Shown: in pieces, positions 40,598-63,747 of the stretch
Numbering within the stretch: the stretch's first letter is position 1
Layout of the letters: each line of letters begins with the position of its first letter
Source: a virus
Lineage: Duplodnaviria; Caudoviricetes
Reading direction: 5' to 3' (one strand)
IMG/VR virus record: IMGVR_UViG_3300035505_000313
Coordinates: 1-64,000 of that record
Length of the DNA stretch: 64,000 bases
The notes under the pieces: generated by a model
Database searches by the model: none
What the model saw: only the letters and a program-made list of their open reading frames with translations
Told to the model about the DNA's origin: nothing
Position numbers and translations under genes: made by a program

Positions 40598-42040
40598 ATG
40601 GCTGAAGAATGTCTTTGCAATGTGGTAGCTTCTGGATATGGTTATAGTAGTACCTATGATACTGATGGAAGTTGCCTTTGTAATACAGTTCGTGTAAGAA
40701 AATATCTTTCTACATATGGTTCTTGTGAAAGTGGAGTTATTGCTGGTTATGGTGGTTGTGGTGTAGATACTAGTTCATATAGTAGCTATGGAACTACAAA
40801 TAGCAATAATTCTTCTAGCAACTCATATAGCTCATGTGATGGAACTGTTTGCTCATGCAATTCTAGAAGTAAATTAACTTCTTATGCAGATAGTATTTAT
40901 GGTTCTTGTGGCTATTGTACATGTGATTCTAGAACAGGAACTAAATATGTAGCAGATACAGTGTATGGTAGTTCAAGTTCTTCAGTAACTTGCTCATGCA
41001 ACTCTAGAGTAACGACTACTTATAGTTCATGCGATAACACAAACACTGATACAAATAGTTCTTATGGTTTATGTGGTGATTATAGTTCTTGTAGTAATAC
41101 AAGTTCTTCTTGTTCATGCAACTCTAGAGTAACAAATACAACATCTTCAGGAAGCTCTTATAGTTCTTGTGGGGATTATGGTTCATGTGGTGGTTCTTAT
41201 AGTTCTTATGGTTCTTGTGGAACATATGCTAGTTATACATCATGTGGAACACCTTGTGCATGTAATTCTAGAACTCTTAAAGGTTCTTCTAATACAGATT
41301 CAGAGGATGATAAGACAACTGATGTTGTTGATATTCCAGAAGGAAAGAATATTCCTGAATTGACTGAAACAGATATTGAAGATGTTCAATATAATACACT
41401 TTGGGATACTACTGAAAACAACTCTAAGCTTCCTGCTACTTCTTCAAATAGAACTAATAAAGCTCTTAAGACTTCAAATAAGAGAATAATTACTGCTATT
41501 AATGAATTAGTAACAAGTAATTCAAGCTTAGACAAGAAGATTGACGAGTTTAATGAACGCTTCAATCAAGTAATGGGTAATGAAGTTACTGACCCATCAC
41601 TTCTTACTGATGTAAATGAGTTAGGTGGAAGTGCTTTAGCAGCTATTACAGGTCTGTATAATCTTCTTAAAGAATATGATACAAATCTTACTAAAGCAAC
41701 ACATGATATGCAGTCACTTAAAGCTGAATTGACTGAGAAGATTGAAAGTCTTGAAAGTTCAATTAGCAATGGTGGTGTATCAACAACTTCTACTGCTAAT
41801 ACAATTACAGAACTCGTTACTGAAGATAGATTTAATGAAGCAGCTCAGATGATTACATTAGCAGCTATTCCTAAAGATAGTTCTAATGTTAAGCTTTTAG
41901 TAAATAATGTACAGTATTTTGCTGGTGTTGACTTTATTGTTGATGGTGATAGCATTTACTGGGCATTTACAGAAAATAATGGTGGATTTAATCTTAATCT
42001 TACTAACTACGACATTCATGTTATTTATGAAGTTGGTTAA
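40598..42040 (+). CDS. tail-associated protein: N-terminal Cys/Ser/Tyr repeat region + coiled coil + shared C-terminal domain
   Basis: CSCNSR and YGSCG repeats in the first ~230 aa; start revised to 40598 by SD spacing. Confidence 0.7.
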   Translation: MAEECLCNVVASGYGYSSTYDTDGSCLCNTVRVRKYLSTYGSCESGVIAGYGGCGVDTSSYSSYGTTNSNNSSSNSYSSCDGTVCSCNSRSKLTSYADSIYGSCGYCTCDSRTGTKYVADTVYGSSSSSVTCSCNSRVTTTYSSCDNTNTDTNSSYGLCGDYSSCSNTSSSCSCNSRVTNTTSSGSSYSSCGDYGSCGGSYSSYGSCGTYASYTSCGTPCACNSRTLKGSSNTDSEDDKTTDVVDIPEGKNIPELTETDIEDVQYNTLWDTTENNSKLPATSSNRTNKALKTSNKRIITAINELVTSNSSLDKKIDEFNERFNQVMGNEVTDPSLLTDVNELGGSALAAITGLYNLLKEYDTNLTKATHDMQSLKAELTEKIESLESSISNGGVSTTSTANTITELVTEDRFNEAAQMITLAAIPKDSSNVKLLVNNVQYFAGVDFIVDGDSIYWAFTENNGGFNLNLTNYDIHVIYEVG

Positions 42041-42084
42041 TAAAAATGGAGGATATGGTAGAAATACCATATCCTCTTATATTT

Positions 42085-44622
42085 TTATTTAAAGCTAAGA
42101 CGTACAAGAACTTTTCCAGCTCCACCGCCTGAACCAGTTAATGCAATACCAATAATATCTTCAGCAAGATTCTTATCAGTTACATAAGCTTTACCTTTAC
42201 CAGCATTTTCAGATGACATAACTACATATTCACCAGATTTTACTGCAGAATCTACATTTACTTCATGTATACCTGCTGTAACTACTGGATAATTCTTAGA
42301 AGTGTCACCACCTGCTGCAATACCTATATTATCATCAAAAATACCAAATGGAATACACCTAGATGTATCACTCTTTAATGCTTTCTGAATATAAATATCT
42401 TCTTCAGCTCTACCTGCTAAGATACCAACAATATCACCATTCTGGAAGGAATGTGCTAATACATCACTCTCAATAGTAACAAAGTTACCAAGTCCTTTAT
42501 TATCAGAGTTATAACGAGTAGACTGTAAGTAACCATTATAACTTAAAAATTGTGTACCTGTACATTCAATTTTGGATTTATACCAATAACCATCTTGCAC
42601 AGTTTCTTGTGTTCTATCCCAATTATAATGGTACTTCAAGAACCTTTCTCTTGTCTGAATACGATAAGGATTAACAAGCATAAGCTTGAACTTACCACAA
42701 TAACTACCAGAGTTATATACTTTGATACGTGTTTCAGTAGCATCTACTGAAATCTCACCAACCATACAGTCAATTTCATTGATGTTATTTCCTGATACAT
42801 CAGGTGTAACAGAAATCAAGAATGGTACATTAGATGTAATACCATGAGGAATCAACGTAGGGTCATCTGAACCAGAGAAGTAACCTGTTAATGATAAAGA
42901 TGTATCATAATCATCAGTATTAAATGCTGCCCAATGGAATTTGGTCTTAGCATCACCAGTATTATATACATAGATGTTTTCAGCATCCCAATCAAAGTAA
43001 TACTCACCTAAGTCACCAGTTGGATTCTCCCAAGCTTGTACTGTAACAAAGTCAGGAATCTTAGGAAGTCCATGAGGAATAGTAAGTTTATCACTATTAC
43101 CAATGAAGTTCTCAAATCCATAATTAACTGGTTCAGAACTATCAAGATTCTTAATTGCAACCCAATCGAATTCTGTATTAGCAATACCTGAGTTATGTAC
43201 ATAGATGTATGTATCATCCCAACTAACCCAAGTCTCACCTAAGTTACCACCATTATCAGCTGCAGGATTCATGACAACAAAGTCAGGAGTTTCACCAAGA
43301 TTATGAGAAATCCTTAACTCTTGTCCTAAACCTAAAAACTGGTTTGTACCTGTTTTAACATTAAACCTACTAGTTGTAATGTCTTCTTTTAAGTTATCAA
43401 GTTCATTATTGATAGCATCAATTCTATCCTTAGTCCATTGTGTAAACTCAGCATATATGTAGTTAATAAATTCATCTACAATCTTCTGATATAATGAATA
43501 AGCATAGTCCTTAATAATAATATCTTGTGAATCAACATAATACTTTTCTACAAGTCTATCATTGATATCAAGAATCTGCTGTTCTATATTATTATAGAAA
43601 TTCAAATCACCATTTAAAGCTGTAGTAACTTGCTTTAAGCTCATATACTCAGTATCTTGCTTATCAGTATTACTTCCTAAAACTGCATTTGTTAAAACAT
43701 CCATTGATGAATCATAACTATAGATATCGCCTAAATCTCTATTCTTAAGAACCTGTACTAAACCATACTTCAATGCAAATTCATCTTCATAGTATGATGT
43801 TCCATTAAGAGGTAATTGATTTCTATTAGAAGTTGACTTAGGTTTAAAGTCATGAAGTACTTCAAGAAGCATATCTTGGTCGTTAAGATTAGTGACATCA
43901 TATCCTCTCATAGTACTAATAATCTTCAAACCAATGTTCTGAAGAAATTCAATATCATAATAAGAATTAGGAGATAAATAAGGGTCATTCTCAAGGACGT
44001 TCTTAAATACTCCTGGATTTGATACTTGGACTTTCATATCCAATGTATCTAATTCAACTTCTGCAATAGAATCACCTATTGAGATATTTCTCTGAGTTAA
44101 GACATCCAAGAAACCTACACGAATAAGAGCATCCTTATTCCTATAAGCATACTTAGCATCAAGTTGATACAAAGCATCAATATCATCAATCTCTGTAATA
44201 ATTTCAGTTGGAGTAATAGGATTTGATTGTACTACCAGATTATATAACATTTCTACATCATAAAAATCGTAGTACTTAACATTTCTTAAATCAAGAACTC
44301 TCTCGAATCCAACTCTCATAAGAAAATATGTGTAATAATAAGCATCTGAATAAGTTCTAAAGAACTTAGTAGATTCATCTACACCAACCTTATTTACGAT
44401 TGCACTCTTATCTTGAAAATGGATAGCAGCTTCGTCAATCATTGTACGAACTTGATTGAAGAAATTGTAGATATCTTCAATGGATGTAATATCGAGCAAT
44501 GTTAACTCATCTGAAGTAAGATGTTTAAGTTTATCTATTAAGATTTCTCTGTCGTATTCATTACGAGCTACAAAGTACTTCAGGAGTTCATCTATTTCAA
44601 ATTGTTCTGGTCTTAATCCCAT
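42085..44622 (-). CDS. putative virion/tail protein with three H-lectin-like repeats and a DUF2190-like C-terminus
   Basis: Three ~75 aa repeats (H.L..TPDFV....GE.......IYVxNSG...F.W.A); start revised to MGLRP at 44622 (SD AAAGGAG). Confidence 0.6.
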   Translation of the reverse strand: MGLRPEQFEIDELLKYFVARNEYDREILIDKLKHLTSDELTLLDITSIEDIYNFFNQVRTMIDEAAIHFQDKSAIVNKVGVDESTKFFRTYSDAYYYTYFLMRVGFERVLDLRNVKYYDFYDVEMLYNLVVQSNPITPTEIITEIDDIDALYQLDAKYAYRNKDALIRVGFLDVLTQRNISIGDSIAEVELDTLDMKVQVSNPGVFKNVLENDPYLSPNSYYDIEFLQNIGLKIISTMRGYDVTNLNDQDMLLEVLHDFKPKSTSNRNQLPLNGTSYYEDEFALKYGLVQVLKNRDLGDIYSYDSSMDVLTNAVLGSNTDKQDTEYMSLKQVTTALNGDLNFYNNIEQQILDINDRLVEKYYVDSQDIIIKDYAYSLYQKIVDEFINYIYAEFTQWTKDRIDAINNELDNLKEDITTSRFNVKTGTNQFLGLGQELRISHNLGETPDFVVMNPAADNGGNLGETWVSWDDTYIYVHNSGIANTEFDWVAIKNLDSSEPVNYGFENFIGNSDKLTIPHGLPKIPDFVTVQAWENPTGDLGEYYFDWDAENIYVYNTGDAKTKFHWAAFNTDDYDTSLSLTGYFSGSDDPTLIPHGITSNVPFLISVTPDVSGNNINEIDCMVGEISVDATETRIKVYNSGSYCGKFKLMLVNPYRIQTRERFLKYHYNWDRTQETVQDGYWYKSKIECTGTQFLSYNGYLQSTRYNSDNKGLGNFVTIESDVLAHSFQNGDIVGILAGRAEEDIYIQKALKSDTSRCIPFGIFDDNIGIAAGGDTSKNYPVVTAGIHEVNVDSAVKSGEYVVMSSENAGKGKAYVTDKNLAEDIIGIALTGSGGGAGKVLVRLSFK

Positions 44623-44754: not shown

Positions 44755-45654
44755 TTACTCAAGTCCAAGCTTTCTTAATCTCTCATGATGAGTGTTGTAA
44801 GCTCTTGAACGGATATCATAAATGATATTTGATGTCTCTGTCTCATTGTCACATCGATTAATGTCATATAGTCCATCTTGATGGGAAATGTCATCACCAG
44901 AACGTCCATAACTTTCAGCTACGACTTTACCAGAAGCATCACGAATATAACTTCTTACATCTTCTTTAGGTTTAACCCAGTTAAATAAATCAACACTGAT
45001 TGGCTCTTCAAATTCTCCATTACAGATTCTCTGAGAAAGCAAATCCATTTCATAGTTAAACCTCTCAATGTAAGGTGGAAGCAGAGGTACAACTGATTCT
45101 ACAGTACCAATACCAAACTCTCTAATACCTAACTTATAAAGGTCATCAATGCTTGAGTTAAGATAACCAATATTCCAAGGATGAGTGGTAATATGAACAC
45201 CTAAGTCATAAATACCTGCTTTATGTAAAGCTTCAATATTCCTAACTACAGTGTTATAAGTATTTGTACCAGTACCTTTGAATACTCTGAACATATTAGC
45301 TAATGGATGACCATCCATACTAATAGCAAAGTGCACTCTCTCTGTCTTAAGCATATCAATCAATTCGTTATTGATAATAGTTCCATTAGTGGTGATTGTG
45401 AAATCAACATCCAAGTTAGGATACTCATTAGTAACATATATTACTGTATTTCTAATGTTATCCCAAGCCATCATAGGCTCACCACCTAAGAACTCAATTC
45501 CGAATGAATCAGAAGTTCTAAACTTGATAATATTATCTAAAGTCTCTTTAACTTCTTCCCAAGTGTATGTGCTTGTCTTATCTTGTTCATAGCAGTATTT
45601 ACAAGCACAATTACATGCTTTAGTAACATGTAAAACATATGTTTCTCTTGCCAT
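44755..45654 (-). CDS. radical SAM enzyme without SPASM domain
   Basis: CNCACKYC, FLGGEP, TTNGT, ISMDG; no C-terminal Cys cluster. Confidence 0.9.
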   Translation of the reverse strand: MARETYVLHVTKACNCACKYCYEQDKTSTYTWEEVKETLDNIIKFRTSDSFGIEFLGGEPMMAWDNIRNTVIYVTNEYPNLDVDFTITTNGTIINNELIDMLKTERVHFAISMDGHPLANMFRVFKGTGTNTYNTVVRNIEALHKAGIYDLGVHITTHPWNIGYLNSSIDDLYKLGIREFGIGTVESVVPLLPPYIERFNYEMDLLSQRICNGEFEEPISVDLFNWVKPKEDVRSYIRDASGKVVAESYGRSGDDISHQDGLYDINRCDNETETSNIIYDIRSRAYNTHHERLRKLGLE

Positions 45655-45665: not shown

Positions 45666-46895
45666 CTAATCTTCTACAGTTGAATGGTGACCAGCAACAT
45701 TAACTACGTTACAGTTCTCATACTCATCCTTAATAGGCTGTAGATTTTCATCAATAAGACCAGCTTCAACTAATCTGTCTTTTACCCAATGCTGAACATC
45801 ACGCTCAACATGTGACATCATACAACGTTCTCTCCTAATAGTCTGGAAGAGATTCTGATGTCTTCCCCAGTTATCAGCAATACATCTATAACAATGGAAG
45901 CAATCACAAGTAGGATTCTCTGTTGCACAAGACATATCAGAACCATCATAATCATTGTATAACAAATCCTTCATTTCATCAATACCATCATCCAGATTAC
46001 CAATAATAGTATAGTTGTCTGGGTCATTATAATAAATTTGATGACAAGGTGAAATCAAACCTGATGCAGTAATTGATACGAAGTTCTTACCTGCACCACA
46101 CGGAGCACCAAAACCATTGATACACATAAGTGTTTTATCAATCGGTGCATAAGAATAAATGTACTGTAAATCACGTTCTTCGATAGCTTTATTTACAAGC
46201 ACTTCAGCAATCTTAATTAACTGCTCTTTGTAACTTCTTACACTTTCAATAGTATATCCATTATCAGAATGGATAGGCATAAACCAAATCCAAGGACATT
46301 TCCATTCCTCTACAAAGAACTTATAATTCTCAAACAGATACATCATGTTATCAGAAGTCAAACAAGAGTGAAGACACAATCTATTATTGAACGTACCCTC
46401 TTCTCCAAGGATTCTCTGCCAGAACTTTACACCCTCGGCAACCTTATCAAATGTACCTTTACCATCAATGGTAACACGATTCTGGTCATGACACTCCTTA
46501 ATACCATCAACAGAAATCTGTACATTGATATGACATAAATCCTTATACTTTGTAAACAGTTCCTCATACTTATCATTGAAGATAGTACCATTTGTAATAA
46601 TAGTTACTACAAATACAATACCAGTTTCCTCATCAAGCTGATGACCTATTTCAAATGCTTTTTTCATACCCTCATAATTTAATAAAGGCTCTCCACCAAA
46701 TGCTGTGATTGATACACAATCGTCACCAGTAATCTGAGCATTTTTATATAAAAAGCGAATAGCCTTTTCAACTGTCTCAACTGACATGTTCTGATTATGG
46801 TGAGCACCCAGTTCGAAACAGTACTTACAGCGTAAATTACATTGTTCGGACAAGAGTAAACTTGCCGCTGTTGGATAACAACTCATAACCAACAT
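45666..46895 (-). CDS. radical SAM/SPASM peptide-maturase-like enzyme
   Basis: CNLRCKYC, FGGEPLL, TNGT, ISVDG, SPASM CGAG...ITASGLISPCH and C..C.C..CYRC...C. Confidence 0.92.
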   Translation of the reverse strand: MLVMSCYPTAASLLLSEQCNLRCKYCFELGAHHNQNMSVETVEKAIRFLYKNAQITGDDCVSITAFGGEPLLNYEGMKKAFEIGHQLDEETGIVFVVTIITNGTIFNDKYEELFTKYKDLCHINVQISVDGIKECHDQNRVTIDGKGTFDKVAEGVKFWQRILGEEGTFNNRLCLHSCLTSDNMMYLFENYKFFVEEWKCPWIWFMPIHSDNGYTIESVRSYKEQLIKIAEVLVNKAIEERDLQYIYSYAPIDKTLMCINGFGAPCGAGKNFVSITASGLISPCHQIYYNDPDNYTIIGNLDDGIDEMKDLLYNDYDGSDMSCATENPTCDCFHCYRCIADNWGRHQNLFQTIRRERCMMSHVERDVQHWVKDRLVEAGLIDENLQPIKDEYENCNVVNVAGHHSTVED

Positions 46896-46900: not shown

Positions 46901-47878
46901 TTACTCAATAATTCCTAAATTTTTATAGGTCTTCTTGAACCCTGGACCATAGTCCCAATCATCACAAAGACCTTCAACAGTTGCCCAGTCGAACAAGATT
47001 TCTTGGTCATCATTATGACGACATCTTTCAACTGCAGAACTGCAATCCATAACGGAAAAGCTATACTTTTTGTCAAGTACTTCTTCCATGATATCATAAA
47101 CCATACCATCATCATAAAGATGATAATAGAAATCCTTAAATGCACGATACTTGTTATCAGCATAGTACTTCATAATAGCATCACGATTTCCGGGACTTAT
47201 CTGTACTTCTACAAGGTCAAGATGCTTTCCTCCTACACTATCCAGAATAGGAAGCATTTCGAATAACTTATCTCTATGTAAAGACCATGAAGGTTCTTCA
47301 ACAGTGATTCGGAATCCCATGTTAGCAGCCTTTTCCATGTTATTATAAACCTGTTTAGAGAAGAATGAAGCTGAAACATGGAAACGAAGTTCCTCAACTC
47401 TCATCTCTTTCATTCTCTTAAGATTCTCCTCATTACACAGAATACCATTTGTATATACAAAGTAGTAATGGTTAATACCATTACGGTCTCCAATATCATT
47501 CAGAATCAAAGCAAATTTCTCTAACTCATCAAGGTAAGCTACTGTCTCACCTGCGGACTGATAAGAAAAGATTGTAGGCTTGAAATTCTGAAGATTCTGT
47601 GACATAAAGAACCAATCAGCAAGCTTGCTGTTAATGGAATCCATTGTTTCCTCACCTCTATTAATATCATAATAGCAATAAGGACAGTTACACATACATT
47701 TAGTTCCAATCTGAACTCCTGAACCTTGTTCTCCAGTAAAACATTTACGACATCCTGGAGATATCTTTCCAATATGGAAAGCATGACCATTAGCGTGCAT
47801 TTCAGCACCTTTCTTGAGAAGCTCTTGCTGTCTAGCAAACTTCTCCAACTGAATCTCCTGATAAGGTACAACTCGCAT
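46901..47878 (-). CDS. radical SAM enzyme with extra N-terminal CxxC (COG2108-like)
   Basis: GCRKCFTG...CMCNCPYC, YTNG, EELRFH; start revised to MRVV at 47878 (SD AGGAGG). Confidence 0.85.
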   Translation of the reverse strand: MRVVPYQEIQLEKFARQQELLKKGAEMHANGHAFHIGKISPGCRKCFTGEQGSGVQIGTKCMCNCPYCYYDINRGEETMDSINSKLADWFFMSQNLQNFKPTIFSYQSAGETVAYLDELEKFALILNDIGDRNGINHYYFVYTNGILCNEENLKRMKEMRVEELRFHVSASFFSKQVYNNMEKAANMGFRITVEEPSWSLHRDKLFEMLPILDSVGGKHLDLVEVQISPGNRDAIMKYYADNKYRAFKDFYYHLYDDGMVYDIMEEVLDKKYSFSVMDCSSAVERCRHNDDQEILFDWATVEGLCDDWDYGPGFKKTYKNLGIIE

Positions 47879-47906
47879 AATAAAATCCTCCTTCATATTA
47901 TTTTTC

Positions 47907-48794
47907 TTAATATACAAAATTGCACTTTTTGAATAACTCTTGTAAAAAAGGGTCATATTTGATTATACGCAAATTTTCTTCTCGGTAATCATTAGTCCAA
48001 GCATTATCTGGACTCTGCTTCTCACAAGCAACCCCTCCAAAGTGGAAGAAATAAGGATTCCAATTAACTCCTTGTTTACCAAGATAATCTGCAGTAGAAT
48101 AATAAATTTTTCTTCTCAATATTTCATTAAAAAAGTATGTTCCGCTATCATAACATCCATACAAGTATCTAGAATATTTATCGTTTACTTCTTTGCTTTC
48201 AATATTATCAAAGTATAAATGTTCTTTGTCTATAAGTAATTGAATGTCCATAAAAGCTAATCCCATCCAAATTCTTTTATGATAAACTTTATCATTATAT
48301 CTTTCTAATGTTAAAGGGCATATATCAGGATTATTGCTATTAAAAATATCATCATAGTTATGATTTGGAATAGAAAATATTGTTTTATCTAATATACCAA
48401 TAATATTAGCTTTTTTATGTATTACTTCTTTGAACATTATTTTTAGTGTTGCTTGACTTTTGATAATAATGTCACCATCTAAGAATAAAGCATACATAAC
48501 ATTATTTTTATGTGCATATAAGAAACATTCATTGTAAATCTTATTTACTCTAACGGTAATATTCTTTTCATCATTACTAAACCTTGACCATGTTATAACT
48601 TTATAACCTTTACTTTCCGCCCAAGCTTTAGTATCATCTGTAGAATCATCATCAAAAATAACTATGTTATCTTTAAACATAGGATAAAATGTTAGTACAG
48701 ATTCACTAGCAAGCTCAAGATATGGTCTTATATTCTTACCAGAAATAAAAATATAAAAACCTCCTAATTCTTTTAATTCTCTTATATAATCCAT
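47907..48794 (-). CDS. GT-A fold (GT2-like) glycosyltransferase
   Basis: IVIFDDDSTDDT, LFLDGDII (DxD), YDSG, HFGG. Confidence 0.8.
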   Translation of the reverse strand: MDYIRELKELGGFYIFISGKNIRPYLELASESVLTFYPMFKDNIVIFDDDSTDDTKAWAESKGYKVITWSRFSNDEKNITVRVNKIYNECFLYAHKNNVMYALFLDGDIIIKSQATLKIMFKEVIHKKANIIGILDKTIFSIPNHNYDDIFNSNNPDICPLTLERYNDKVYHKRIWMGLAFMDIQLLIDKEHLYFDNIESKEVNDKYSRYLYGCYDSGTYFFNEILRRKIYYSTADYLGKQGVNWNPYFFHFGGVACEKQSPDNAWTNDYREENLRIIKYDPFLQELFKKCNFVY

Positions 48795-49897: not shown

Positions 49898-49920
49898 AAA
49901 TTATCCTCCTAGTCAAAATA

Positions 49921-49954
49921 AATGGGATAAGATTACGAATAATCTTATCCCATT
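49921..49954 (-). terminator. hairpin / putative terminator
   Basis: AATGGGATAAGATT/AATCTTATCCCATT. Confidence 0.6.
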
Positions 49955-49958
49955 TATT

Positions 49959-50645
49959 TTATTTGTTAAGTCTGTCTTCAATACGTCTTAAAGATGTAAG
50001 AATAGCAGTTAAACTCTGAATCAACAAAGTTTCTGTTTCTTCATTCTCAATAACAGCAGATGTTTCTTCTTTCTTACATCCACAGTTACATGATTCTGCT
50101 TCTTTAGCAGCTTGTTGTTTTCTAAGTTCACCTACAAATGTTCCGTCACCATAAACTTTTTCACTATTACGTTCCATGAATTCCTTTACAGTTTCGTTAA
50201 TATGAGGGAAATTATCTTCATTCCATTTAGCTTCTTCTTGTTTATCAAGAAGGTCTTCTGGATAATGAACTCCTTCTGGGTCTTCATATCTTAGATAATC
50301 TGGATTATGAGATAAATCATCAACAACTTGATATTTCTTAGGATTATATTCTTTCTTCTTAGGTTCTTCACCAACACGAACAACAACATCACATCCATTG
50401 GACGTATCAGGATTATTTACGAATGGACTTCTGTCTACAACATCACACCCATCAGCAGTATCAAATTCAACTTCCCTACAATTACTGATGAAATCTTTAC
50501 TTACTTGGTCATCGTCATTAATAGGAACACATACTACAACATCACAGTTACTAGTATCAACGTCTCCTCTGCATTGACAATCACATCCAACTTCATCTAC
50601 AGAGTAACCTCCAGGATAGTATTTACTTCTATCAAATAAAGCCAT
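49959..50645 (-). CDS. acidic protein with DTxxGCDVV repeats
   Basis: CDCQC, three DT(S/A)xxCDVV units, CNCGC, C-terminal helix. Confidence 0.65.
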   Translation of the reverse strand: MALFDRSKYYPGGYSVDEVGCDCQCRGDVDTSNCDVVVCVPINDDDQVSKDFISNCREVEFDTADGCDVVDRSPFVNNPDTSNGCDVVVRVGEEPKKKEYNPKKYQVVDDLSHNPDYLRYEDPEGVHYPEDLLDKQEEAKWNEDNFPHINETVKEFMERNSEKVYGDGTFVGELRKQQAAKEAESCNCGCKKEETSAVIENEETETLLIQSLTAILTSLRRIEDRLNK

Positions 50646-50710: not shown

Positions 50711-51037
50711 TTATTTACAAGCAGAGCTTACAACTTTGTTAGAGCTTCCACAACCACTATATGTAGGTGTGCTACAAGCAGAAGAAGTTACCTTATTAGA
50801 ACTTCCACAAGAACCATAAGTAGCTGTAGATGGTTTAACTGTACCACATGAAGATGTAGTAGACTTAGAAGTAGAATTCTTAGTCTCTACTACCTTAGTA
50901 TCTACAGTCATACCACACTGACCATAAGTAATAGTAGTTGTCTGAACCAGCTTCTTGAGGTTCTTAGAGTTACATGCTGAATAGGTTGATTCTGGAACTT
51001 TTACGTTCTTCTGTCCATACTTATAAAACTTAGCCAT
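50711..51037 (-). CDS. small Ser/Thr/Cys-rich precursor-like peptide (108 aa)
   Basis: Start revised to MAKF at 51037 (SD AGGAGG); TYGQCG, TYGSCGSSNKVTSSAC, TYSGCGSSNKVVSSAC. Confidence 0.7.
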   Translation of the reverse strand: MAKFYKYGQKNVKVPESTYSACNSKNLKKLVQTTTITYGQCGMTVDTKVVETKNSTSKSTTSSCGTVKPSTATYGSCGSSNKVTSSACSTPTYSGCGSSNKVVSSACK

Positions 51038-51059
51038 AATGTTTTCCTCCTTAAATCTT

Positions 51060-52655
51060 TTAATTATCATATGGTGCATACATATCTACAACATTGCAAG
51101 AACATACATCATTACATGCACAAGTTGTTCTAGTTTCACATAAGGGAACTGAACGAGAATTACATCCACATGTAGTAAAGCTTGTTCTATCTACACAATC
51201 ACAGCTTTGACTAGAAGCAGTACGTGATACACAACTATAATCAGTTGAGTAAACTGTTCTAGCTTCACATATTGTATCTAATGCAGTAGTTGTACGCACA
51301 TTACATGTACAATCTACAGCTTGTGTTGTACGTGCAAGGCATACTTTATCAGCAGCATAAGCTGTCCTTGATGCACAATCCGAACTGTATTCTATATAGT
51401 TTGTTGACGTTCTTGATGTACAAACTGACTTTTGGGTTGTTCTACTATTACAAGTACATATTTCTTTGTAGTCAAAAACTTGGTCATTTTTGTCTATATT
51501 ACAACTGCAAGAAACTCCTATATATGCTGTAACTGATACCCTAGATATACAAGTATAATATGAGTAAGTACGTGAATTACAAGTGCAATTAGCTCCACTA
51601 TCAGAGCAAGCAGAATAACTTCCAGAATATCCTGAAGCTATTTTTACAGCATTACATGTACAAGCAAATATACTATCAGAAGTATTTACTGAATTACAGT
51701 CACATGCTGGAACATATTGAGTTGTAGTTCTAGCTGGACATACACTATTATTTGAATTTGTACGTGTGTCACATAAGCAACAACTATTATATTGCTTAAA
51801 ACTAAGTGTATCACTATAACCAACAGTATTACAAAAACAAGCTGGTTTTACTGCAGATGTACCTACAGTATTACATTTACATGAAGCACCTACTCCATAA
51901 TCAACTGAAGTCCTAGTATTACATTCACATGATTCTGAGTAAGTAGTTCTAGATACACAATCGCATACATCTAAAACCTTACCATCTTTGTCAGGTGCTA
52001 TTCTAGAAAAACATGTACAAGTTGTTCCATAAGTAATATCTTTCTTAGGTTCTTGAACTATACTAACTCTTGAACCACATAATATAGCATCTTCATGGTC
52101 ATTTGCTGTTCTAGAATCACAATCACAAGTTACTACACCTAAATCAATATATCCTGCTGTTCTAGAATCACATACACAAGTTATTCCATACACATTAGGA
52201 GAGTACTCAGAAGTTCTAGAATTACACATACAAGCTTCATCAGCATGAATTCTAGAATTACATTCGCAACTTGCATAATAATAAGTCCTTGCTTGACAGA
52301 TAGGAGTAGAATATGGTTTCTCAACTTCTTCACATTCCAAAGTTCTAGAATTACATTCACAAGTGGATGTATTATAAGTAACTATAGTTGTTCTAGACCC
52401 ACATATCATTGTGGTATTTGGTATAAAGTTTGTGACTTCTTTTAAATCTGCTGGTGTCTTTTCCATTACATGATGAATATGACCATTACAATCAGCTCTA
52501 TCAATAGCTTCTCTACGATTATTCATATCTTGTACTAGATTCTTAAGCTGATTTAAAGAACCACGAAAGTTAGCAAAAGGGTCATAACCACGAAGCTTAA
52601 CCATTTCTTCATGTATATCACCTAATGATATTTCTTTTTTATTCCATTCAGACAT
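51060..52655 (-). CDS. CxCxxR-repeat Cys-rich protein with conserved N-terminal leader
   Basis: 531 aa; dozens of CxCxSR/CxSRT units. Confidence 0.8.
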   Translation of the reverse strand: MSEWNKKEISLGDIHEEMVKLRGYDPFANFRGSLNQLKNLVQDMNNRREAIDRADCNGHIHHVMEKTPADLKEVTNFIPNTTMICGSRTTIVTYNTSTCECNSRTLECEEVEKPYSTPICQARTYYYASCECNSRIHADEACMCNSRTSEYSPNVYGITCVCDSRTAGYIDLGVVTCDCDSRTANDHEDAILCGSRVSIVQEPKKDITYGTTCTCFSRIAPDKDGKVLDVCDCVSRTTYSESCECNTRTSVDYGVGASCKCNTVGTSAVKPACFCNTVGYSDTLSFKQYNSCCLCDTRTNSNNSVCPARTTTQYVPACDCNSVNTSDSIFACTCNAVKIASGYSGSYSACSDSGANCTCNSRTYSYYTCISRVSVTAYIGVSCSCNIDKNDQVFDYKEICTCNSRTTQKSVCTSRTSTNYIEYSSDCASRTAYAADKVCLARTTQAVDCTCNVRTTTALDTICEARTVYSTDYSCVSRTASSQSCDCVDRTSFTTCGCNSRSVPLCETRTTCACNDVCSCNVVDMYAPYDN

Positions 52656-53670: not shown

Positions 53671-55353
53671 TTATTCATATTTAATTACTTGGTTACAGCT
53701 ACATATATTTGACATACTAGCTGTACGTGATGGACACAATGAACCAGTTCTTGTATTACAACCACATGATGTAGCGATTGTTCTAGAAGCACAATCGGTA
53801 ACAACATTAGTTCTTGTATTACAAGTACAATTTGCAGTATATACAGAATCATACACTCTATCTGGTTCATCAACTGACCCCATCTCAATCTTATTATAAG
53901 TACCTTGTGTTCTTTCAACACAATCACAAATACTAGTTGAAGCTACACGACTAGCACAAATGTCTGAATAAACATAAGCAGTATTAGCTGTTCTGTTTAC
54001 ACAAGGACAATCTGCTACAGATGTAGCTACCGTTCTTACATTACATATACAATCCACTTTAGCAGTTGTTCTAGATGCACATGTTACTTGAGTTAAGTTA
54101 ACTGTATGAGAACTACAACCACCATCACATGTTCCATAACCAGTACCACATACACTATAATAACTAGTACCACAAGAGGATATATAACCGAATGTATCAC
54201 ATTCTGAATAATAAGAAGAAGCCATACTATCATTACCTCCATTTAAACTTTGATTACTACTACATACACTATAGACCACTGTATCAGTGTTACTATTATA
54301 GTAAGCAAAACTACCACCACCATATAGTTCAACGTAACTATCTGATACTGGTACTACGTTTGAAGGACAACTATAAGTAGTCCTTGCATCACACAAACAA
54401 TTATCATTTGTGCTTTCATATATTGTATCACTTCCACCATAAGCGATATTCTTTGTACAATCAACAGTTGCTACTGTATTGCAAGAACAGCCAGTTCTTC
54501 CATTACATATACAAGTAGTATCTGTTTTATTATATGAATAATCAGGAACAGTTATCTTATCAGAAGTATAACCAGTTCTTGAATTACATACACAAGTAGT
54601 TCTAGAATTACATGAACACATTTCACATGCACTGTAATCCACAACACTGTCATTAACTTTATCACTATCAACTGTTGTTCCTACCCTTGAACCACATACT
54701 GTTTTTGTTCTAGAGTTACATGAACAATCTCCACATCCACTAGTTAACCAGTCAATAGCATAATCACTAGTTGTAGAATAAGTTACCCTTGAACCACATA
54801 CTGTTTTTGTTCTAGAGTTACATGAGCAATCTCCACATCCACTAGTTAACCAGTCAATAGCATATTCACTAGTTGCAGAAGTTCCAGCTCTTGAACCACA
54901 TACTGTTTTTGTTCTAGAGTTACATGAACATGTTCCACATCCACTAGTCAAATAATCTGCAGCATATGTGTTACTAACTGAATAAGTTACCCTTGAACCA
55001 CATACTGTTTTTGTTCTAGAGTTACATGAACATGTTCCACATCCACTAGTCAAATAATCTGCAGTATAAGCCTTAGAAGCTGTAGTTCCAGTTCTTGAAC
55101 TACAATCTACAGCTGTTCTAGATGAACATACAGAAGCTGCAGATGTTGATGTTTCAGTAGTTGTTCTAGATACACATGCACAAACATAATCTCTAGAGTA
55201 AGAACCACCTACATAGCTTGATGTATAAGCACCACCAACATAAGTTGTATAATAAGCACTACCTACATAATTAGTAGTATAAGCACCACCAACATACACT
55301 GATGTATAAGTATTTCCATATGTAGCGGTATAATAACTTGCATAAGAACCCAT
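53671..55353 (-). CDS. CxCxxR-repeat Cys-rich protein with YVGGxY N-terminus
   Basis: 560 aa; four 34-aa tandem repeats. Confidence 0.8.
   Translation of the reverse strand: MGSYASYYTATYGNTYTSVYVGGAYTTNYVGSAYYTTYVGGAYTSSYVGGSYSRDYVCACVSRTTTETSTSAASVCSSRTAVDCSSRTGTTASKAYTADYLTSGCGTCSCNSRTKTVCGSRVTYSVSNTYAADYLTSGCGTCSCNSRTKTVCGSRAGTSATSEYAIDWLTSGCGDCSCNSRTKTVCGSRVTYSTTSDYAIDWLTSGCGDCSCNSRTKTVCGSRVGTTVDSDKVNDSVVDYSACEMCSCNSRTTCVCNSRTGYTSDKITVPDYSYNKTDTTCICNGRTGCSCNTVATVDCTKNIAYGGSDTIYESTNDNCLCDARTTYSCPSNVVPVSDSYVELYGGGSFAYYNSNTDTVVYSVCSSNQSLNGGNDSMASSYYSECDTFGYISSCGTSYYSVCGTGYGTCDGGCSSHTVNLTQVTCASRTTAKVDCICNVRTVATSVADCPCVNRTANTAYVYSDICASRVASTSICDCVERTQGTYNKIEMGSVDEPDRVYDSVYTANCTCNTRTNVVTDCASRTIATSCGCNTRTGSLCPSRTASMSNICSCNQVIKYE
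54690..55075. repeat. 102-nt (34 aa) coding tandem repeat, 4 copies
   Basis: YxxD(Y/W)LTSGCGxCSCNSRTKTVCGSR units with near-identical DNA cores. Confidence 0.85.
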
Positions 55354-55367: not shown

Positions 55368-56519
55368 CTAACATCCACCATAACAAGCAGAGGAACTTGA
55401 AGAATATGTGTTAGTATTGCAATAACAATCAGTTCTAGAATTACATGAACATACACTATTACAAGAGCAAGCAGCATTACATGTACAAACACTTTCACAT
55501 GTGCAACAAGCAGAAGTACTTGTTCTACCATTACAACTACAAGTAGTGCTGTAATTAGTTCTTCCATGACAACTGCAAGATGTTACTGAACTTGTTCTAC
55601 CATTACAACTACAAGAATAAGTAGTACTTGTTCTACCATTACAATCACATACACTTCTTGAACCACATTGAACTGTAGCTGATGTGTATGAATAAGATGT
55701 AGTTCTTGATTCACAAGTACAACCATAACAAGCTGAATAAGTAGTATCTGTATAATTATAAGTTCTAGAATTACAAGAACAAGCAGTTCTAGCATTACAA
55801 GAGCATCCTGTGTCTGTATCATAATAAGTTTTATCAGAAGCATAATCTGCTGTTACAGTAGATGTTGTTCTGGAATTACAAGAACAGGTTGTTCTAGAAT
55901 TACAAGTACATTTAGTATCTTCACTATAATATGACTTATCAGCAGTATATAATGTGTCACCATAATTATATGTCCTAGCATTACATGTACAAGTTGTTCT
56001 GGAATTACAAGTACATTTAGTATCTTCACTATAATATGATTTATCTGATGTGTAATCTGCTGTTACATTAGATGTTGTTCGACTACCGCATACAGTAAGT
56101 GTTCTAGAATTACAAGAACATTTAGTATCTGTATCATAATATGAATTATCAGCAGTATATAATACATCACTAGTACCTTTTGTTCTAGTATTACATGAAC
56201 AAGCAGTTCTAGAATCACATGTACAAATTGAATTTCCATATACATCATCAAAATAAAAATCTCCACATGAAGAACTATAAGCTGAACGTGATGCACAAGC
56301 AACCCCAGTTCTAGAATTACATGAACACTCTCCACAACCACTAGTATAAAAATCTTCTGTATAAGTACTTGAATTTGTATAAGTAGTTCTAGCTGTACAT
56401 ACAATAGATGTTCTAGTATTACAAGTACATTTAGTACCTACACCATAAGAATAATCTGATACTTTATCACCTTGACTTATTGCATAAGTAGTACGTGAAT
56501 TACATACACAATATGACAT
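55368..56519 (-). CDS. CxCxxR-repeat Cys-rich protein (no leader)
   Basis: 383 aa; starts MSYCVCNSRTT; ADKSYYSEDTKCTCNSR repeats. Confidence 0.8.
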   Translation of the reverse strand: MSYCVCNSRTTYAISQGDKVSDYSYGVGTKCTCNTRTSIVCTARTTYTNSSTYTEDFYTSGCGECSCNSRTGVACASRSAYSSSCGDFYFDDVYGNSICTCDSRTACSCNTRTKGTSDVLYTADNSYYDTDTKCSCNSRTLTVCGSRTTSNVTADYTSDKSYYSEDTKCTCNSRTTCTCNARTYNYGDTLYTADKSYYSEDTKCTCNSRTTCSCNSRTTSTVTADYASDKTYYDTDTGCSCNARTACSCNSRTYNYTDTTYSACYGCTCESRTTSYSYTSATVQCGSRSVCDCNGRTSTTYSCSCNGRTSSVTSCSCHGRTNYSTTCSCNGRTSTSACCTCESVCTCNAACSCNSVCSCNSRTDCYCNTNTYSSSSSACYGGC

Positions 56520-58279: not shown

Positions 58280-58346
58280 AAGGTAGACCTCCTTTCAGAA
58301 AATATAATATTATTAATATAATGAATAGTTCTTATTATATAAAATG

Positions 58347-58385
58347 AATATGAGATATACTAGATAAACTAGTATATCTCATATT
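58347..58385 (-). terminator. hairpin / putative terminator
   Basis: AATATGAGATATACTAG/CTAGTATATCTCATATT 17-bp stem. Confidence 0.65.
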
Positions 58386-58395
58386 TTTTATTTAT

Positions 58396-60543
58396 TTAAG
58401 ATGTATGACTTGTACATACATTTTTGGTTTCTGTAGTATTCTTATTAACTGTATTAACTGATGCAGTTGTATACTGATTTACAGCATTACAATAGCATTT
58501 AGCACTACATCCTACAGTTGTTCTTGATGAGCAGATAGTAGATGTTGTTGCTGATGTTCTAGATACACAATCACAAGTGGTTGTGTAGTTAGTTCTACCA
58601 TCACATGAACATGTAGAAGTTGTACCTGTTCTAGAAGTACATTCAGAAGATGTTATATAATAAGTTCTACCATCACATGAACATGTAGAAGTTGTACCTG
58701 TTCTAGAACTACATTCAGATGTTGTGGTTTTATTAGTTCTAGAATTACATAAACAAGCTACTGTTCCACCTGTTCTAGAACTACATTCAGACGTAGTAGT
58801 ACTTGATGTTCTACCATCACATGAACAAGCTACTGTTCCACCTGTTCTAGAACTACATTCAGATGTTGTGGTTTTATTAGTTCTAGAATTACATAAACAA
58901 GCTACTGTTCCACCTGTTCTAGAACTACATTCAGATGTTGTAGTGTTATTAGTCCTAGAATTACATAAACAAGCTACTGTTCCACCTGTTCTAGAACTAC
59001 ATTCAGATGTTGTAGTGTTATTAGTCCTACTATCACATAAACAAGCTACTGTTCCACCTGTTCTAGAACTACAATCAGCAGAACTATAATATTCAGTTCT
59101 TACATCACATAAGCATGAAGTAGTTGCACCAGTTCTAGAACTACATTCTGAAGACGTATATGAATAAGTTCTAGCTGCACAAGTACAAGAATAAGCATAA
59201 GTAGTTCTAGAAGTACATGTAGAATCATATGCTGAATAGTAACCAGAAATTCTACCATTACATGAACAAGAATAACTTGATGAATAACCAGAAATTCTAC
59301 CATTACATGAACAAGAATAAGCTGAATAGTAATATGTTCTAGCATTACAAGAACAAGAATAACCTGATACTGAGTTACAACTACATGCAGTTCTACTACT
59401 ACACACTGTACTACCTTCAAGAAGATAATAACCAGAACAATCTCCATATACAAATAAATCATAAACATATACATAATAACTTCCACAAGGAATACTAGCT
59501 TGATAGTAAAAAATTTCCCAACTACATCCTACTTTATTACAACTACAATTATAAGTTGCTCTACTAGAACATGTATAATAAGAATATACTCTAACATTAC
59601 AATCATATCCTGTAGCTGTATATGTTCTAACATTACAATCATAATTTGTAGTAGTAGTTGTTCTAGTATTACAATCATAAGATGTAGCTGTATATGTTCT
59701 AGCATTGCAATCAGTATAACTATAAGTTCTAGCATTGCAATCAGTATAACTATAAATTCTACTAGAACATATACCAGTTCTAGATGAACAATTACTACCT
59801 TGATAAGTACTTCTACTAGAACATATAGCTGTTCTACTACTACAATCACTACCTATATCTGTAGTTCTTGCTGTGCATATAGCTGTTCTACTACTACAAT
59901 CACTACCTATATCTGTAGTTCTTGCTGTGCATATAGAAGTTCTACTACTACAATCACTACCTATATCTGTAGTTCTTGCTGTGCATATAGCTGTTCTACT
60001 ACTACAATCACTACCTTGTGTATAAGTTCTACTGGAACATATAGAAGTTCTACTACTACAATCACTACCTATATCTGTAGTTCTTGCTGTACATATAGCT
60101 GTTCTACTACTACAATCGCTACCTTGTGTATAAGTTCTACTAGAACATATAGCTGTTCTACTACTACAATCACTACCTTGATAGTAAGTTCTACTAGGAC
60201 ATGTTCCTGTATCTGTTCCATATGTAGTTCTACTTACACAATCACATGAATCACTAAATTCATATTGTTTAACATTGTGAGCACTACATTTTAAGTTCGT
60301 TATATTACTTGCTGTATCTTTAACAAATCCCATACTTAAAGGGGAAGAAGACGTAATGGTAAAATTCTTATGACCACTACAATCAACTGTATTTCCACCA
60401 AAAGTAGAAGCATTTCGTTCTGAATTTAAACTAGTTAAAGCTGAAGTTAAAGTTTGTAAATCTTTATATCCTGAAGAATAAGAACTACTAACAGACCCTT
60501 TAGCGTCTATTAAATTTTGTAGCTCTTTATAAGAAATTCCCAC
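58396..60543 (-). CDS. largest CxCxxR/CSSRT-repeat Cys-rich protein, with divergent leader
   Basis: 715 aa; two internal tandem-repeat blocks flank a unique aromatic core. Confidence 0.8.
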   Translation of the reverse strand: MGISYKELQNLIDAKGSVSSSYSSGYKDLQTLTSALTSLNSERNASTFGGNTVDCSGHKNFTITSSSPLSMGFVKDTASNITNLKCSAHNVKQYEFSDSCDCVSRTTYGTDTGTCPSRTYYQGSDCSSRTAICSSRTYTQGSDCSSRTAICTARTTDIGSDCSSRTSICSSRTYTQGSDCSSRTAICTARTTDIGSDCSSRTSICTARTTDIGSDCSSRTAICTARTTDIGSDCSSRTAICSSRSTYQGSNCSSRTGICSSRIYSYTDCNARTYSYTDCNARTYTATSYDCNTRTTTTTNYDCNVRTYTATGYDCNVRVYSYYTCSSRATYNCSCNKVGCSWEIFYYQASIPCGSYYVYVYDLFVYGDCSGYYLLEGSTVCSSRTACSCNSVSGYSCSCNARTYYYSAYSCSCNGRISGYSSSYSCSCNGRISGYYSAYDSTCTSRTTYAYSCTCAARTYSYTSSECSSRTGATTSCLCDVRTEYYSSADCSSRTGGTVACLCDSRTNNTTTSECSSRTGGTVACLCNSRTNNTTTSECSSRTGGTVACLCNSRTNKTTTSECSSRTGGTVACSCDGRTSSTTTSECSSRTGGTVACLCNSRTNKTTTSECSSRTGTTSTCSCDGRTYYITSSECTSRTGTTSTCSCDGRTNYTTTCDCVSRTSATTSTICSSRTTVGCSAKCYCNAVNQYTTASVNTVNKNTTETKNVCTSHTS
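58690..59075. repeat. 69-nt (23 aa) coding tandem repeat, ~5 copies
   Basis: TTTSECSSRTGGTVACLCNSRTNx units. Confidence 0.85.
59790..60190. repeat. 54-nt (18 aa) coding tandem repeat, ~7 copies
   Basis: GSDCSSRT(A/S)IC(T/S)(A/S)RT(T/Y)(D/T)(I/Q) units. Confidence 0.85.
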
Positions 60544-60602: not shown

Positions 60603-60644
60603 TAATTTTTTGTTATTATATCATGGAATTTTAACAAGTTTATA
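60603..60644. promoter_or_regulatory. divergent pair of late-type AACA-N6-TA promoters
   Basis: 60603-60614 (-) points into the Cys-rich cluster; 60633-60644 (+) points into the lysis genes. Confidence 0.6.
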
Positions 60645-62558: not shown

Positions 62559-62569
62559 TATATAAATTT

Positions 62570-62601
62570 GAGAGGAATGATGAAACTACATCATTCCTCT
62601 C
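62570..62601 (+). terminator. intrinsic terminator
   Basis: GAGAGGAATGATG/CATCATTCCTCTC + T tract. Confidence 0.75.
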
Positions 62602-62623
62602 TTTTTGTCTAAAAATTTATGTT

Positions 62624-62635
62624 AACACAATCATA
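62624..62635 (+). promoter_or_regulatory. late-type promoter AACA-N6-TA
   Basis: AACA-CAATCA-TA 33 nt upstream of the radical SAM gene. Confidence 0.55.
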
Positions 62636-62667
62636 ACTATAAAACTTAGAGAAAAGGAGTAAGTAAA

Positions 62668-63747
62668 ATGCCAAATATTATTATTAACACAGCGTGTAAC
62701 TTAAGATGTAGATATTGCTTTGCAGATGATTGTAAAGCAAATAATGTAAATATCAATATGACTATGAAGAACTTCAAGAAAGCATTAGACTTTGTTTCTA
62801 GAACAGATAACTATATTGGTATTCTTGGTGGTGAACCTTTGATTCATCCAGATATTGATTCTATGATTATGCAAGTTATTATGGATGACCGCTATGTAAG
62901 TACTACTATTTTTACTAATGGTATTGAAGTAGATAATCATCTTGGTATCTTTGCTAATCGTAAAGTAGGATGTCTTATCAACTTCAATTCAGAAGAAAAC
63001 ATTGAGAATAAAGAGAATGAAGAACGAGTAATTGATAACATTGGTCAGCTAATTGCTCTTAAGAAAGACCAAGATTGTAATGACCCTAATGTTCCTAAAC
63101 CAGACAATCAAATCAATATGGGTTGTAACATTTGGAAACCTGACCAGAACTTTGATGTATTGATTGATACATTGCATAAGTATGATAGACATAATTTAAG
63201 AATATCTACTGTAGTTCCCAATTCAACTGGTAAGAAAGGTATGAACCCTATTGCATATTTCAAGGAAATGAAACCTACAGTAATGAGGTTATTTGATATG
63301 CTTTATGAGATTGGTTGTGTTCCTAAATCAGATTGTAACTATATTCCTACATGTGTATTTACAGAGGAAGAATTAAATGATTTGGAAAGACGTTTTGTTC
63401 CATTAGCACAGAAATATAATCTTGATTTCAATATCACAAGAAACACTACATGTCAGATGGGTCCGATTGATATCTATCCTGACCTTACTGTTGCAAGATG
63501 TTTTGGGTTCTCTGAGCATGATAGACAGAATATTGATGACTATTTTGATATCAATGGAATCAGAAACTATTTCATTAAGACAGTAACGAATCTTGTTCAT
63601 TACGTTCCTTCACAAGAAGAATGTAAGGATTGTTATTCATTCAAAACACTTCAGTGTACTGGTGGATGTTGTGCATATAAGACTGAAGAAGTAGATAGAT
63701 TGAGAGGTGAGATGGATGCCATTAAAGGACTTGATAACGATAGGTAA
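62668..63747 (+). CDS. radical SAM enzyme with SPASM-like C-terminus
   Basis: CNLRCRYC, LGGEPLIHP, FTNG, C..GPIDIYPDLTVARC, CKDC...CTGGC. Confidence 0.9.
   Translation: MPNIIINTACNLRCRYCFADDCKANNVNINMTMKNFKKALDFVSRTDNYIGILGGEPLIHPDIDSMIMQVIMDDRYVSTTIFTNGIEVDNHLGIFANRKVGCLINFNSEENIENKENEERVIDNIGQLIALKKDQDCNDPNVPKPDNQINMGCNIWKPDQNFDVLIDTLHKYDRHNLRISTVVPNSTGKKGMNPIAYFKEMKPTVMRLFDMLYEIGCVPKSDCNYIPTCVFTEEELNDLERRFVPLAQKYNLDFNITRNTTCQMGPIDIYPDLTVARCFGFSEHDRQNIDDYFDINGIRNYFIKTVTNLVHYVPSQEECKDCYSFKTLQCTGGCCAYKTEEVDRLRGEMDAIKGLDNDR

Follow-up and report, generated by a model that had tools for sequence, protein, structure and literature searches.

What a phage does with a row of large, cysteine-rich repeat proteins encoded next to radical S-adenosylmethionine (SAM) enzymes is the question raised by IMG/VR virus record IMGVR_UViG_3300035505_000313. 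The window, i.e. the whole stretch of DNA analysed here, covers 64 kb of the 75.5-kb record (31% complete according to CheckV, guanine plus cytosine (GC) content approximately 32%). An earlier reading made from the letters alone, referred to here as the sequence-only reading, had proposed that proteins built of C-x-C-x-x-R repeats are cross-linked or glycosylated for the virion in the manner of peptides that are made by ribosomes and modified after translation (RiPPs). Two of the radical SAM genes, termed here rSAM A and rSAM B, are found to form a recurrent cassette with a CxCxxR(T)-repeat gene, and an enzyme–substrate link between these radical SAM enzymes and the CxCxxR proteins is strongly supported by the comparison of loci. 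With slightly more confidence than doubt, the cassette is read as a mobile module of the tail region in which a CteB-like enzyme pair modifies the CxCxxR proteins into a stapled part of the tail fibre. We infer the thioether chemistry by analogy with CteB, PapB, NxxcB and QhpD, and the virion location of the repeat proteins from the tail genes around and fused to them.

The cassette and its distribution

The cassette core consists of rSAM A, a CxCxxR(T)-repeat protein and rSAM B, usually next to a fibre gene that ends in an HGL domain. It is present in approximately 60 loci, which include jumbo phages, high-GC phages and prophages of Desulfitobacterium, Vallitalea, Dethiothermospora and Tissierella. 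In a phage contig of 54% GC found with rSAM A (L005; loci are cited by number where needed) and in its relative L006, rSAM A, a 294–323 amino acid (aa) protein and rSAM B adjoin one another, and the middle protein consists almost entirely of C-x-C-x-x-R-T-x-x units. This trio lies directly upstream of holin and endolysin genes, and in L005 a fibre-like gene is situated directly 5′ of rSAM A. A profile search with rSAM B showed the trio in jumbo-phage contigs L008–L015 (27–44% GC). It is also found in 39 metagenome contigs, in metagenome-assembled genome (MAG) contigs labelled Tissierella, Thermoanaerobacterales and Peptostreptococcaceae, and in L034, binned as 'Nanoarchaeia' (23% GC, 53% identity). 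Three cultured bacteria, Desulfitobacterium chlororespirans, Vallitalea okinawensis and Dethiothermospora halolimnae SD1, carry the trio in prophages of their isolate genomes, which makes the system experimentally tractable. The hosts named by the MAG and isolate prophage loci (L034–L038, L115, L116 and L121–L123) are anaerobic Clostridia and relatives.

In a census with hidden Markov models, rSAM A and a CxxR-rich open reading frame (ORF) are present wherever rSAM B is full-length and flanked by 5 kb or more on either side, and most such loci contain the N-terminal domain of the repeat proteins and an HGL-ending fibre gene as well. The 94 control loci, whose radical SAM similarity is generic only, gave no HGL, leader or CxxR-rich match. 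In the metagenome set, six of 41 weaker-scoring loci contain some cassette partners; these six seem to be cassette relatives that are more remote or cut short. In all, approximately 130 control loci with generic radical SAM genes contain no partner. Gene order (rSAM A–repeat protein–rSAM B) is kept at enzyme identities of 33–65% and GC contents of 23–56%. The sequence-only reading had held that the radical SAM enzymes and the repeat proteins belong together, and had named radical SAM genes occurring widely without repeat genes among the findings that would refute its proposal. rSAM A, rSAM B and a repeat protein are adjacent in every related locus with enough context, and no full-length rSAM B locus with the flanks given above is without a CxxR-rich ORF.

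The closest relatives that have the site on the contig are L118 and L119, with identities of 65% for rSAM B, 57% for rSAM A and 74% for a third radical SAM protein, rSAM C. Here the order is endolysin, small acidic protein, two family 2 glycosyltransferases (GT2), rSAM C, rSAM A, rSAM B and a homologue of the 881-aa fibre-like protein of the window.

Public data contain no fewer than 312 clusters of the rSAM B family at 90% identity, and their annotation goes no further than 'radical SAM protein' or 'AslB'. A tblastn search with rSAM B gave no full-length orthologue in 50,697 sequenced phage records, so the cassette has gone unnoticed so far; blastn and tblastn searches of the same records with the enzyme block and one repeat protein gave no match. 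No further rSAM B orthologue was seen among the genomes searched in a 400-genome sample of the Desulfitobacterium phylum, and a literature search found nothing on this cassette, the one candidate, a cyanophage paper, being unrelated. We have found no Pfam, PHROG or NCBIfam model, no sequenced phage isolate and no paper that describes it.

Two individual contigs deserve mention. The 111-kb contig JGI24131J36419_10000001 carries a leaderless high-GC cassette twice with identical scores (L159 and L160, at 21–36 kb and 70–85 kb); a concatemer, a duplication in the assembly or a true repeat could account for this. The 230-kb phage contig L011, which also has a CxCxxR cassette, displays a second, different pair of radical SAM and Cys-repeat genes in its tail region (L011:1844–3822): among the same tail-fibre genes, a SPASM radical SAM gene (418 aa) is followed by a 241-aa C-x-x-x-C repeat protein (CQxxCQ...).

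The repeat proteins and their enzymes

The sequence-only reading described seven large Cys/Ser/Thr/Tyr-rich C-x-x-R proteins (166–715 aa) on one strand, and their ORFs and coordinates are confirmed (Table 1). AGGAGG-type Shine-Dalgarno sites precede all seven genes, and a wrong-frame artefact was rejected in view of the ORF lengths and these strong ribosome sites. Cysteine makes up 9.5–16% of the proteins, and Ser, Thr and Tyr together 35–55%. The seven proteins contain 156 C-x-x-R motifs where shuffling gives approximately 20 (summed per-protein means), and 74–100% of the Arg residues of each are located in such a motif. With full flanks, 153 motifs could be scored; 122 of them have Thr at position +4 and 86 have Cys at position −2. 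Pro is nearly absent from the motif, and the Arg lies at +3 and +5 relative to the two Cys of C-x-C-x-x-R. What stays invariant in the unit across all lineages is its pair of Cys and its Arg. Where the arrays are regular, units of two types take turns, spaced by 9 and 11 residues, and the structure may thus have a period of approximately 20 residues.

Tandem arrays are also visible at the DNA level within the repeat genes (54672–55104, 55752–56225, 58589–59173 and 59757–60202), with periods of 54, 72, 102–105 and 144–216 nucleotides (nt) and identities of 72–91%. Thus the repeat proteins appear to be growing through recent duplication of units. Outside the seven genes, the CxxR-repeat signature is absent from the ORFs of the contig except for the tail-region protein at 40589–42040. 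Neither the repeat proteins nor the 881-aa protein nor the small proteins are matched by a model of Pfam, PHROGs or NCBIfam. A phmmer search with the 166-aa repeat protein against 1.8 billion representatives gave no match, for which the composition filter is probably responsible; single-protein scans for repeat proteins in viral and metagenome contigs retrieved nothing, and word-indexed searches with one repeat protein and with the leader as queries retrieved just one or two relatives.

Four of the window repeat proteins and most of their relatives share a helix-rich N-terminal 'leader' domain of approximately 90 residues, with the pattern S-L..L...K.GY....L..LK.L...M...R....C..H....LSLGD; the alignment is too variable for a pattern scan. 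The domain is missing from the other three proteins of the window and from the whole L005/L006/L159 lineage, where both enzymes are kept. Since leaderless repeat proteins stand beside the same enzymes, the domain is unlikely to be the recognition element of the enzymes, and rSAM A would act independently of a leader. It may be a docking or oligomerisation domain.

Among NCBIfam models, rSAM A is matched best, over its full length, by PapB, with SCIFF-type maturases next. Its best match in the PDB is CteB (residues 98–449, E-value = 2e-29), with the radical SAM core and the SPASM domain inside the match and the N-terminal RiPP recognition element (RRE) outside it. The alignments start at CteB residue 98 and at position 98 of the SCIFF-maturase model, so rSAM A begins at the radical SAM core and has no N-terminal RRE (PqqD-like) domain. 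In 16 family members the CxxxCxxC residues C19, C23 and C26 and the SPASM residues C266, C284, C323, C330, C335, C338 and C358 are conserved, which is the pattern of the CteB/PapB-clade maturases, CxxxCxxC plus a seven-Cys SPASM motif that serves two auxiliary clusters. The profile match of rSAM B is limited to the core of CteB (E-value = 3e-25). An AlphaFold2 (AF2) model built with 45 homologues has a mean confidence (pLDDT) of 96, and Foldseek places it closest to CteB (TM score 0.66–0.68), with anSME next. Only the three SAM-cluster Cys are invariant in 45 sequences of rSAM B, so it has no auxiliary clusters. The likeness to thioether maturases noted in the sequence-only reading therefore holds for both enzymes, each of which is nearest to the thioether-forming ranthisynthase CteB.

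In many lineages the C-terminal tail of rSAM A carries a substrate-like NNPNNxxCLCDxRG unit (C-L-C-D-x-R-G) and an amphipathic helix. The unit may be a pseudo-substrate or a docking element, and its presence suggests that the motif is what the enzyme binds. Short forms of rSAM A (378–426 aa; window, L118, L122 and L157) are accompanied by a separate small acidic protein (49959–50645 in the window, L118:2365–2958, L122:6032–6391 and L157:1677–2099). The C-terminus of this protein, with CxCG, an acidic stretch and a helix like ALK.IL.KLD.IEK, aligns with the tail of the long rSAM A. By this alignment the 228-aa protein of the window is probably a detached rSAM A tail or an accessory subunit, and it was rejected as a repeat substrate. 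The sequence-only reading had counted it as one of two small Cys peptides; the other one, at 50711–51079, has YGxCG motifs and no CxxR.

Proposed role and alternative explanations

Wherever there is enough context, the cassette is located among or next to tail-fibre genes. The prophages have genes such as Baseplate_J, Mu gp48, the PF12571 tail-collar fibre, and Prophage_tail or Sipho_Gp37 upstream of it, while holin and endolysin genes usually follow downstream; judged by these neighbours, the module can move between tails of very different types. The HGL domain resembles H-type lectin (H_lectin) and Gp53-like_C fibre tips, and it accompanies the cassette elsewhere as it does in the window. 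That the repeats also occur in a tail-region protein is confirmed, since the first ~260 residues of the 40589–42040 protein contain five CxCxxR and five YGxCG units. Its orthologue in L117 is 220 aa long, lacks this extension and has no Cys at all. Thus the window protein has gained the repeats by fusion to a tail-module protein, and nothing else within the window hints as clearly at a place for the repeats on the particle. The proposed association with the tail or virion is upheld to this extent, indirectly, by the tail-fibre gene context and the fusion.

These observations can be combined in a four-part module: a fibre protein ending in HGL, rSAM A, a C-x-C-x-x-R-(T) protein and rSAM B. rSAM A would act iteratively on the repeat units, reading the invariant Cys/Arg signature instead of a leader, with the Arg as recognition residue as in anSME substrates. 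It would make Cys-derived non-alpha thioether links within or between units, and rSAM B would perform a second modification step or serve as a partner subunit. The links made by CteB, PapB, NxxcB and QhpD run from the sulfur of Cys to the C-beta or C-gamma atom of a Thr, Asp, Asn or Glu residue (review PMC8326336). The likeliest acceptors here would be the Thr at +4, or the Asn, Asp or Ser adjoining the Cys. The predicted product is a covalently stapled, Ser/Thr/Tyr-rich and otherwise non-globular protein within or decorating the tail-fibre apparatus; in phages of strict anaerobes it might take the place of disulfides without any need for oxygen. The window phage would have expanded its substrate gene to seven paralogues and one tail-protein fusion, with two GT2 genes and rSAM C added as lineage-specific accessories. 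The repeat proteins may be thioether-linked, rigid and protease-resistant, as the sequence-only reading had it. A bolder form, in which the leader-independent enzyme pair staples CxCxxR(T) arrays with dozens of thioethers into a reinforced fibre or adhesin that works with the lectin-like tip, the first cross-linked 'RiPP protein' of a virus, is put forward tentatively and is rather less probable than its opposite.

Several findings weigh against the stapled tail-fibre reading. Morons, too, occupy the slot between the tail and the lysis genes, and the Desulfitobacterium prophage ends with the cassette as its last set of genes. Position +4 is Cys, not Thr, throughout the Dethiothermospora proteins, which excludes Thr as a universal acceptor. 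L118 and L119 have the full enzyme operon, yet only a 197-aa acidic protein with two CxxR motifs lies within 7 kb; the seven-gene array is thus either a local lineage-specific expansion or has been lost in these two loci. When rSAM A is compared with the named families (PapB, SCIFF maturase, CcpM, CefB, QhpD and anSME), it scores far under every equivalog cut-off, e.g. 156.5 bits against 340 for PapB, 113.6 against 425 for SCIFF, 103.7 against 453 for QhpD and 83.1 against 349 for anSME. Lastly, AF2 gives the 325-aa repeat protein an uninformative fold (pLDDT 39), which fits a need for cross-links, although disorder or a shallow alignment would explain it just as well.

The position of the cassette also favours a different and unlikely explanation, namely that it is a moron whose RiPP-like product (a signal, toxin, adhesin or biofilm matrix) is no part of the virion and is made in the lysogen or released at lysis. 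Morons are typically located between tail-fibre and lysis genes or at a prophage end beside host genes, and SCIFF-type peptides, which are widespread in Clostridia, have a non-antibiotic and possibly signalling role (review PMC8326336). In keeping with this, a Peptidase_C39_2-like gene follows the Vallitalea cassette, and the two repeat genes of L125 adjoin an RNA polymerase gene, not fibres. However, a transporter, signal peptide or leader protease was found in none of the loci, and the size of the product (166–715 aa), the constant coupling to the fibre-tip (HGL) gene across very different tail architectures, the fusion of window repeats to a tail-module protein and the seven copies in apparently lytic jumbo phages all speak against a moron.

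The chemistry could also be other than thioether formation, with the repeats carrying formylglycine made from Cys, an anSME-like dehydro-residue, an epimerised residue or a C–C or C–S link to Arg; this too is held to be improbable. After CteB and its kin, anSME comes second for both enzymes in structure and sequence, and outside the Cys it is Arg and not Thr that is conserved universally in the unit, standing a few residues past the Cys as in anSME substrates; rSAM B, moreover, lacks the auxiliary clusters that known thioether synthases use. The anSME motif C/S-x-P/A-x-R, however, places its Arg at +4, which is neither of the spacings found here, the anSME score is lower than those of PapB and SCIFF, and rSAM B lacks the conserved extra Cys that serves as H-donor in known radical epimerases. 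Sulfatase maturation of the anSME type in particular was rejected; the motif spacing differs and no sulfatase is present. Highly unlikely is the view that the Cys repeats bind metal or clusters (metallothionein-like or zinc-stapled) while the radical SAM enzymes act elsewhere, e.g. on the neighbouring fibre protein. CxC pairs at 10–18% Cys do look like metal-binding proteins, and the lack of an autonomous AF2 fold is in line with this. Yet the enzyme–repeat–enzyme order is conserved across divergent genomes, both enzymes fall within the Cys-peptide maturase clade, the fibre proteins of cassette loci have only 0–2 Cys, and the tail of rSAM A itself has a CxC(D/N)xR unit in many lineages.

Among known systems, the SCIFF or ranthipeptide pairs (CteB–CteA, PapB–freyrasin, NxxcB–NxxcA) resemble the cassette in having a radical SAM/SPASM enzyme of the same clade, adjacent Cys-patterned repetitive substrates and anaerobic Firmicutes hosts. 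Freyrasin carries six C-x3-D units. In contrast, the phage rSAM A has no RRE and scores far under the family cut-offs, the phage substrates are 166–715 aa long with up to 48 units as against peptides of approximately 45 aa, and the cassettes show no cleavable leader, protease or exporter; they always have a second, SPASM-less paralogue and sit in phage tail modules. In QhpD–QhpC, a SPASM radical SAM enzyme forms several Cys thioethers inside a protein that is retained in a larger assembly (review PMC8326336), as is putatively the case for the phage proteins, which would likewise not be secreted peptides. However, the substrate QhpC, one small subunit, has three links in all and a quinone cofactor, and the phage cassette has no dehydrogenase context and a QhpD score far under its cut-off. 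anSME is, like rSAM A, an SPASM enzyme without RRE and acts on a short Cys...Arg motif within a full-length protein, but at one site, whereas each phage protein has tens, and with other motif spacing. The CXXX-repeat peptide/maturase pairs (NCBIfam TIGR04115) share the arrangement of a Cys-repeat substrate beside a SPASM maturase, and a C-x3-C-repeat pair also stands in the tail-fibre region of L011; their repeat is C-x-x-x and not C-x-C-x-x-R, and rSAM A reaches 103 bits against a cut-off of 350.

To our knowledge, the substrates described for radical SAM/SPASM maturases are short secreted peptides and one enzyme subunit (QhpC). The kind of enzyme is thus a known one; new here are the protein-sized repetitive substrates, the lack of an RRE, an apparent independence of leaders, the SPASM-less paralogue as obligatory partner and the setting in phage tail modules. 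If the chemistry were confirmed, the cassette would represent a new RiPP-like class, with extracellular structures stabilised covalently without disulfides in viruses of strict anaerobes, and a motif-directed iterative cross-linking enzyme of biotechnological interest.

Accessory genes and window context

The features of the window are listed in Table 1.

Table 1. Cassette genes, repeat proteins and accessory genes of the window
Feature	Position	Strand	Remarks
Tail-module protein with ~260-aa N-terminal extension rich in CxCxxR and YGxCG	40589–42040	+	C-terminal module common to 36247–37797
Large fibre-like protein, 881 aa	42085–44730	−	Three tandem HGL domains (~42631–43368); follows rSAM B
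rSAM B, CteB-like radical SAM core without auxiliary-cluster Cys	44755–45654	−	Signature gene of the cassette; Pfam Radical SAM 58.6 bits
rSAM A, radical SAM/SPASM, CteB/PapB-like, no RRE, seven conserved SPASM Cys	45666–46895	−	Core cassette gene; Pfam Radical SAM 48.5 bits
rSAM C, divergent radical SAM, CxxxCxxC	46901–47878	−	ORF 46901–47956; Pfam 22.9, under cut-off
GT2-like protein	47907–48794	−	Lineage-specific accessory; 22.3 bits, slightly under cut-off 23.3
GT2-family glycosyltransferase, 367 aa	48794–49897	−	Lineage-specific accessory; Pfam PF00535 29.9 bits, cut-off 23.3
Acidic protein, 228 aa	49959–50645	−	C-terminus (CxCG, amphipathic helix) aligns with rSAM A tail of other lineages
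Small Ser/Thr/Lys-rich protein, YGxCG motifs	50711–51079	−	No CxxR; start probably 51037
Repeat protein, 531 aa	51060–52655	−	Leader domain present
Repeat protein, 325 aa	52671–53648	−	Leader domain present; repeat part without confident AF2 fold
Repeat protein, 560 aa	53671–55353	−	No leader
Repeat protein, 383 aa	55368–56519	−	No leader; 22 of 22 Arg within CxxR
Repeat protein, 166 aa	56591–57091	−	No leader; 10 CxCxxR units
Repeat protein, 390 aa	57107–58279	−	Leader domain present
Repeat protein, 715 aa	58396–60543	−	Leader domain present; 48 CxxR motifs
Fourth radical SAM gene	62668–63747	+	Pfam 41.9 bits; after lysis genes

After the repeat genes the order is YGxCG protein, acidic 228-aa protein, two GT2-like genes and three radical SAM genes. 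Of the two GT2 enzymes proposed by the sequence-only reading, one is supported by a Pfam score above the cut-off and the other lies slightly under it. The latter is weakly similar to its neighbour; the 367-aa GT2 also matches the L118 counterpart of this gene at 25% identity. No PDB relative was found for the GT2 genes by sequence. The GT2 pair is restricted to the close lineage of the window (L118/119), so glycosylation, which had been proposed as part of the system, is accessory at most. The three radical SAM genes said to follow the GT2 genes are present, two recognised by Pfam and the third, rSAM C, by its CxxxCxxC motif; its true start is most likely at 47878. Among the relatives, rSAM C is restricted to L034, L117, L118/119, L122 and L157. 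The fourth gene, proposed as rSAM/SPASM, is indeed a radical SAM gene by Pfam, with a putative SPASM status, but its link to the system is unsupported: no counterpart was found among the relatives examined, and it was rejected as a part of the system. Both rSAM C and the fourth protein are remote from any solved structure.

The window also contains genes for a topoisomerase II, Dda-like and DnaB-like helicases and SbcD, and a multisubunit RNA polymerase beta′-like gene is situated just past its end; the record is thus a fragment of a large phage. A plus-strand structural block (31.4–42 kb) includes a gene matching PHROG 'virion structural protein' and a fibre gene with an Mtd_N domain. The minus-strand block extends from 60543 to 42085 and is followed by plus-strand lysis genes (NlpC/P60 endolysin and membrane proteins). 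Two perfect hairpins of 17–20 bp with T-runs, at 58346–58386 and 49915–49960, likely divide the minus-strand block into three transcription units, i.e. the 715-aa gene, the six other repeat genes with the small proteins, and the GT2, radical SAM and 881-aa genes. A late-type promoter reported at 60603 is not confirmed, as only extended −10-like elements are visible; a sigma-70 scan was uninformative, with matches rarer than in shuffled sequence.

Past the window, at approximately 65.5–67.5 kb of the record (L114:3503–5480), there are two further tandem GT2-type genes with the motif SI(V/I)IPAYN...IIVDDGS, and the phage fragment therefore encodes four GT2-like proteins. L114:11488–12945 (minus strand) and L125:81–1286 resemble fragments of the multisubunit RNA polymerase beta′ subunit (GDYDGD motif) of the kind seen in jumbo phages that encode an RNA polymerase themselves, and in L125 two tandem leader-bearing repeat genes lie directly downstream of this gene. 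Other genes adjacent to the cassette are a weak Maf_flag10_N-like gene of the flagellin-glycosylation family (L122:8527–9342) and, in the Vallitalea prophage, the Peptidase_C39_2-like gene (L116:8896–9519).

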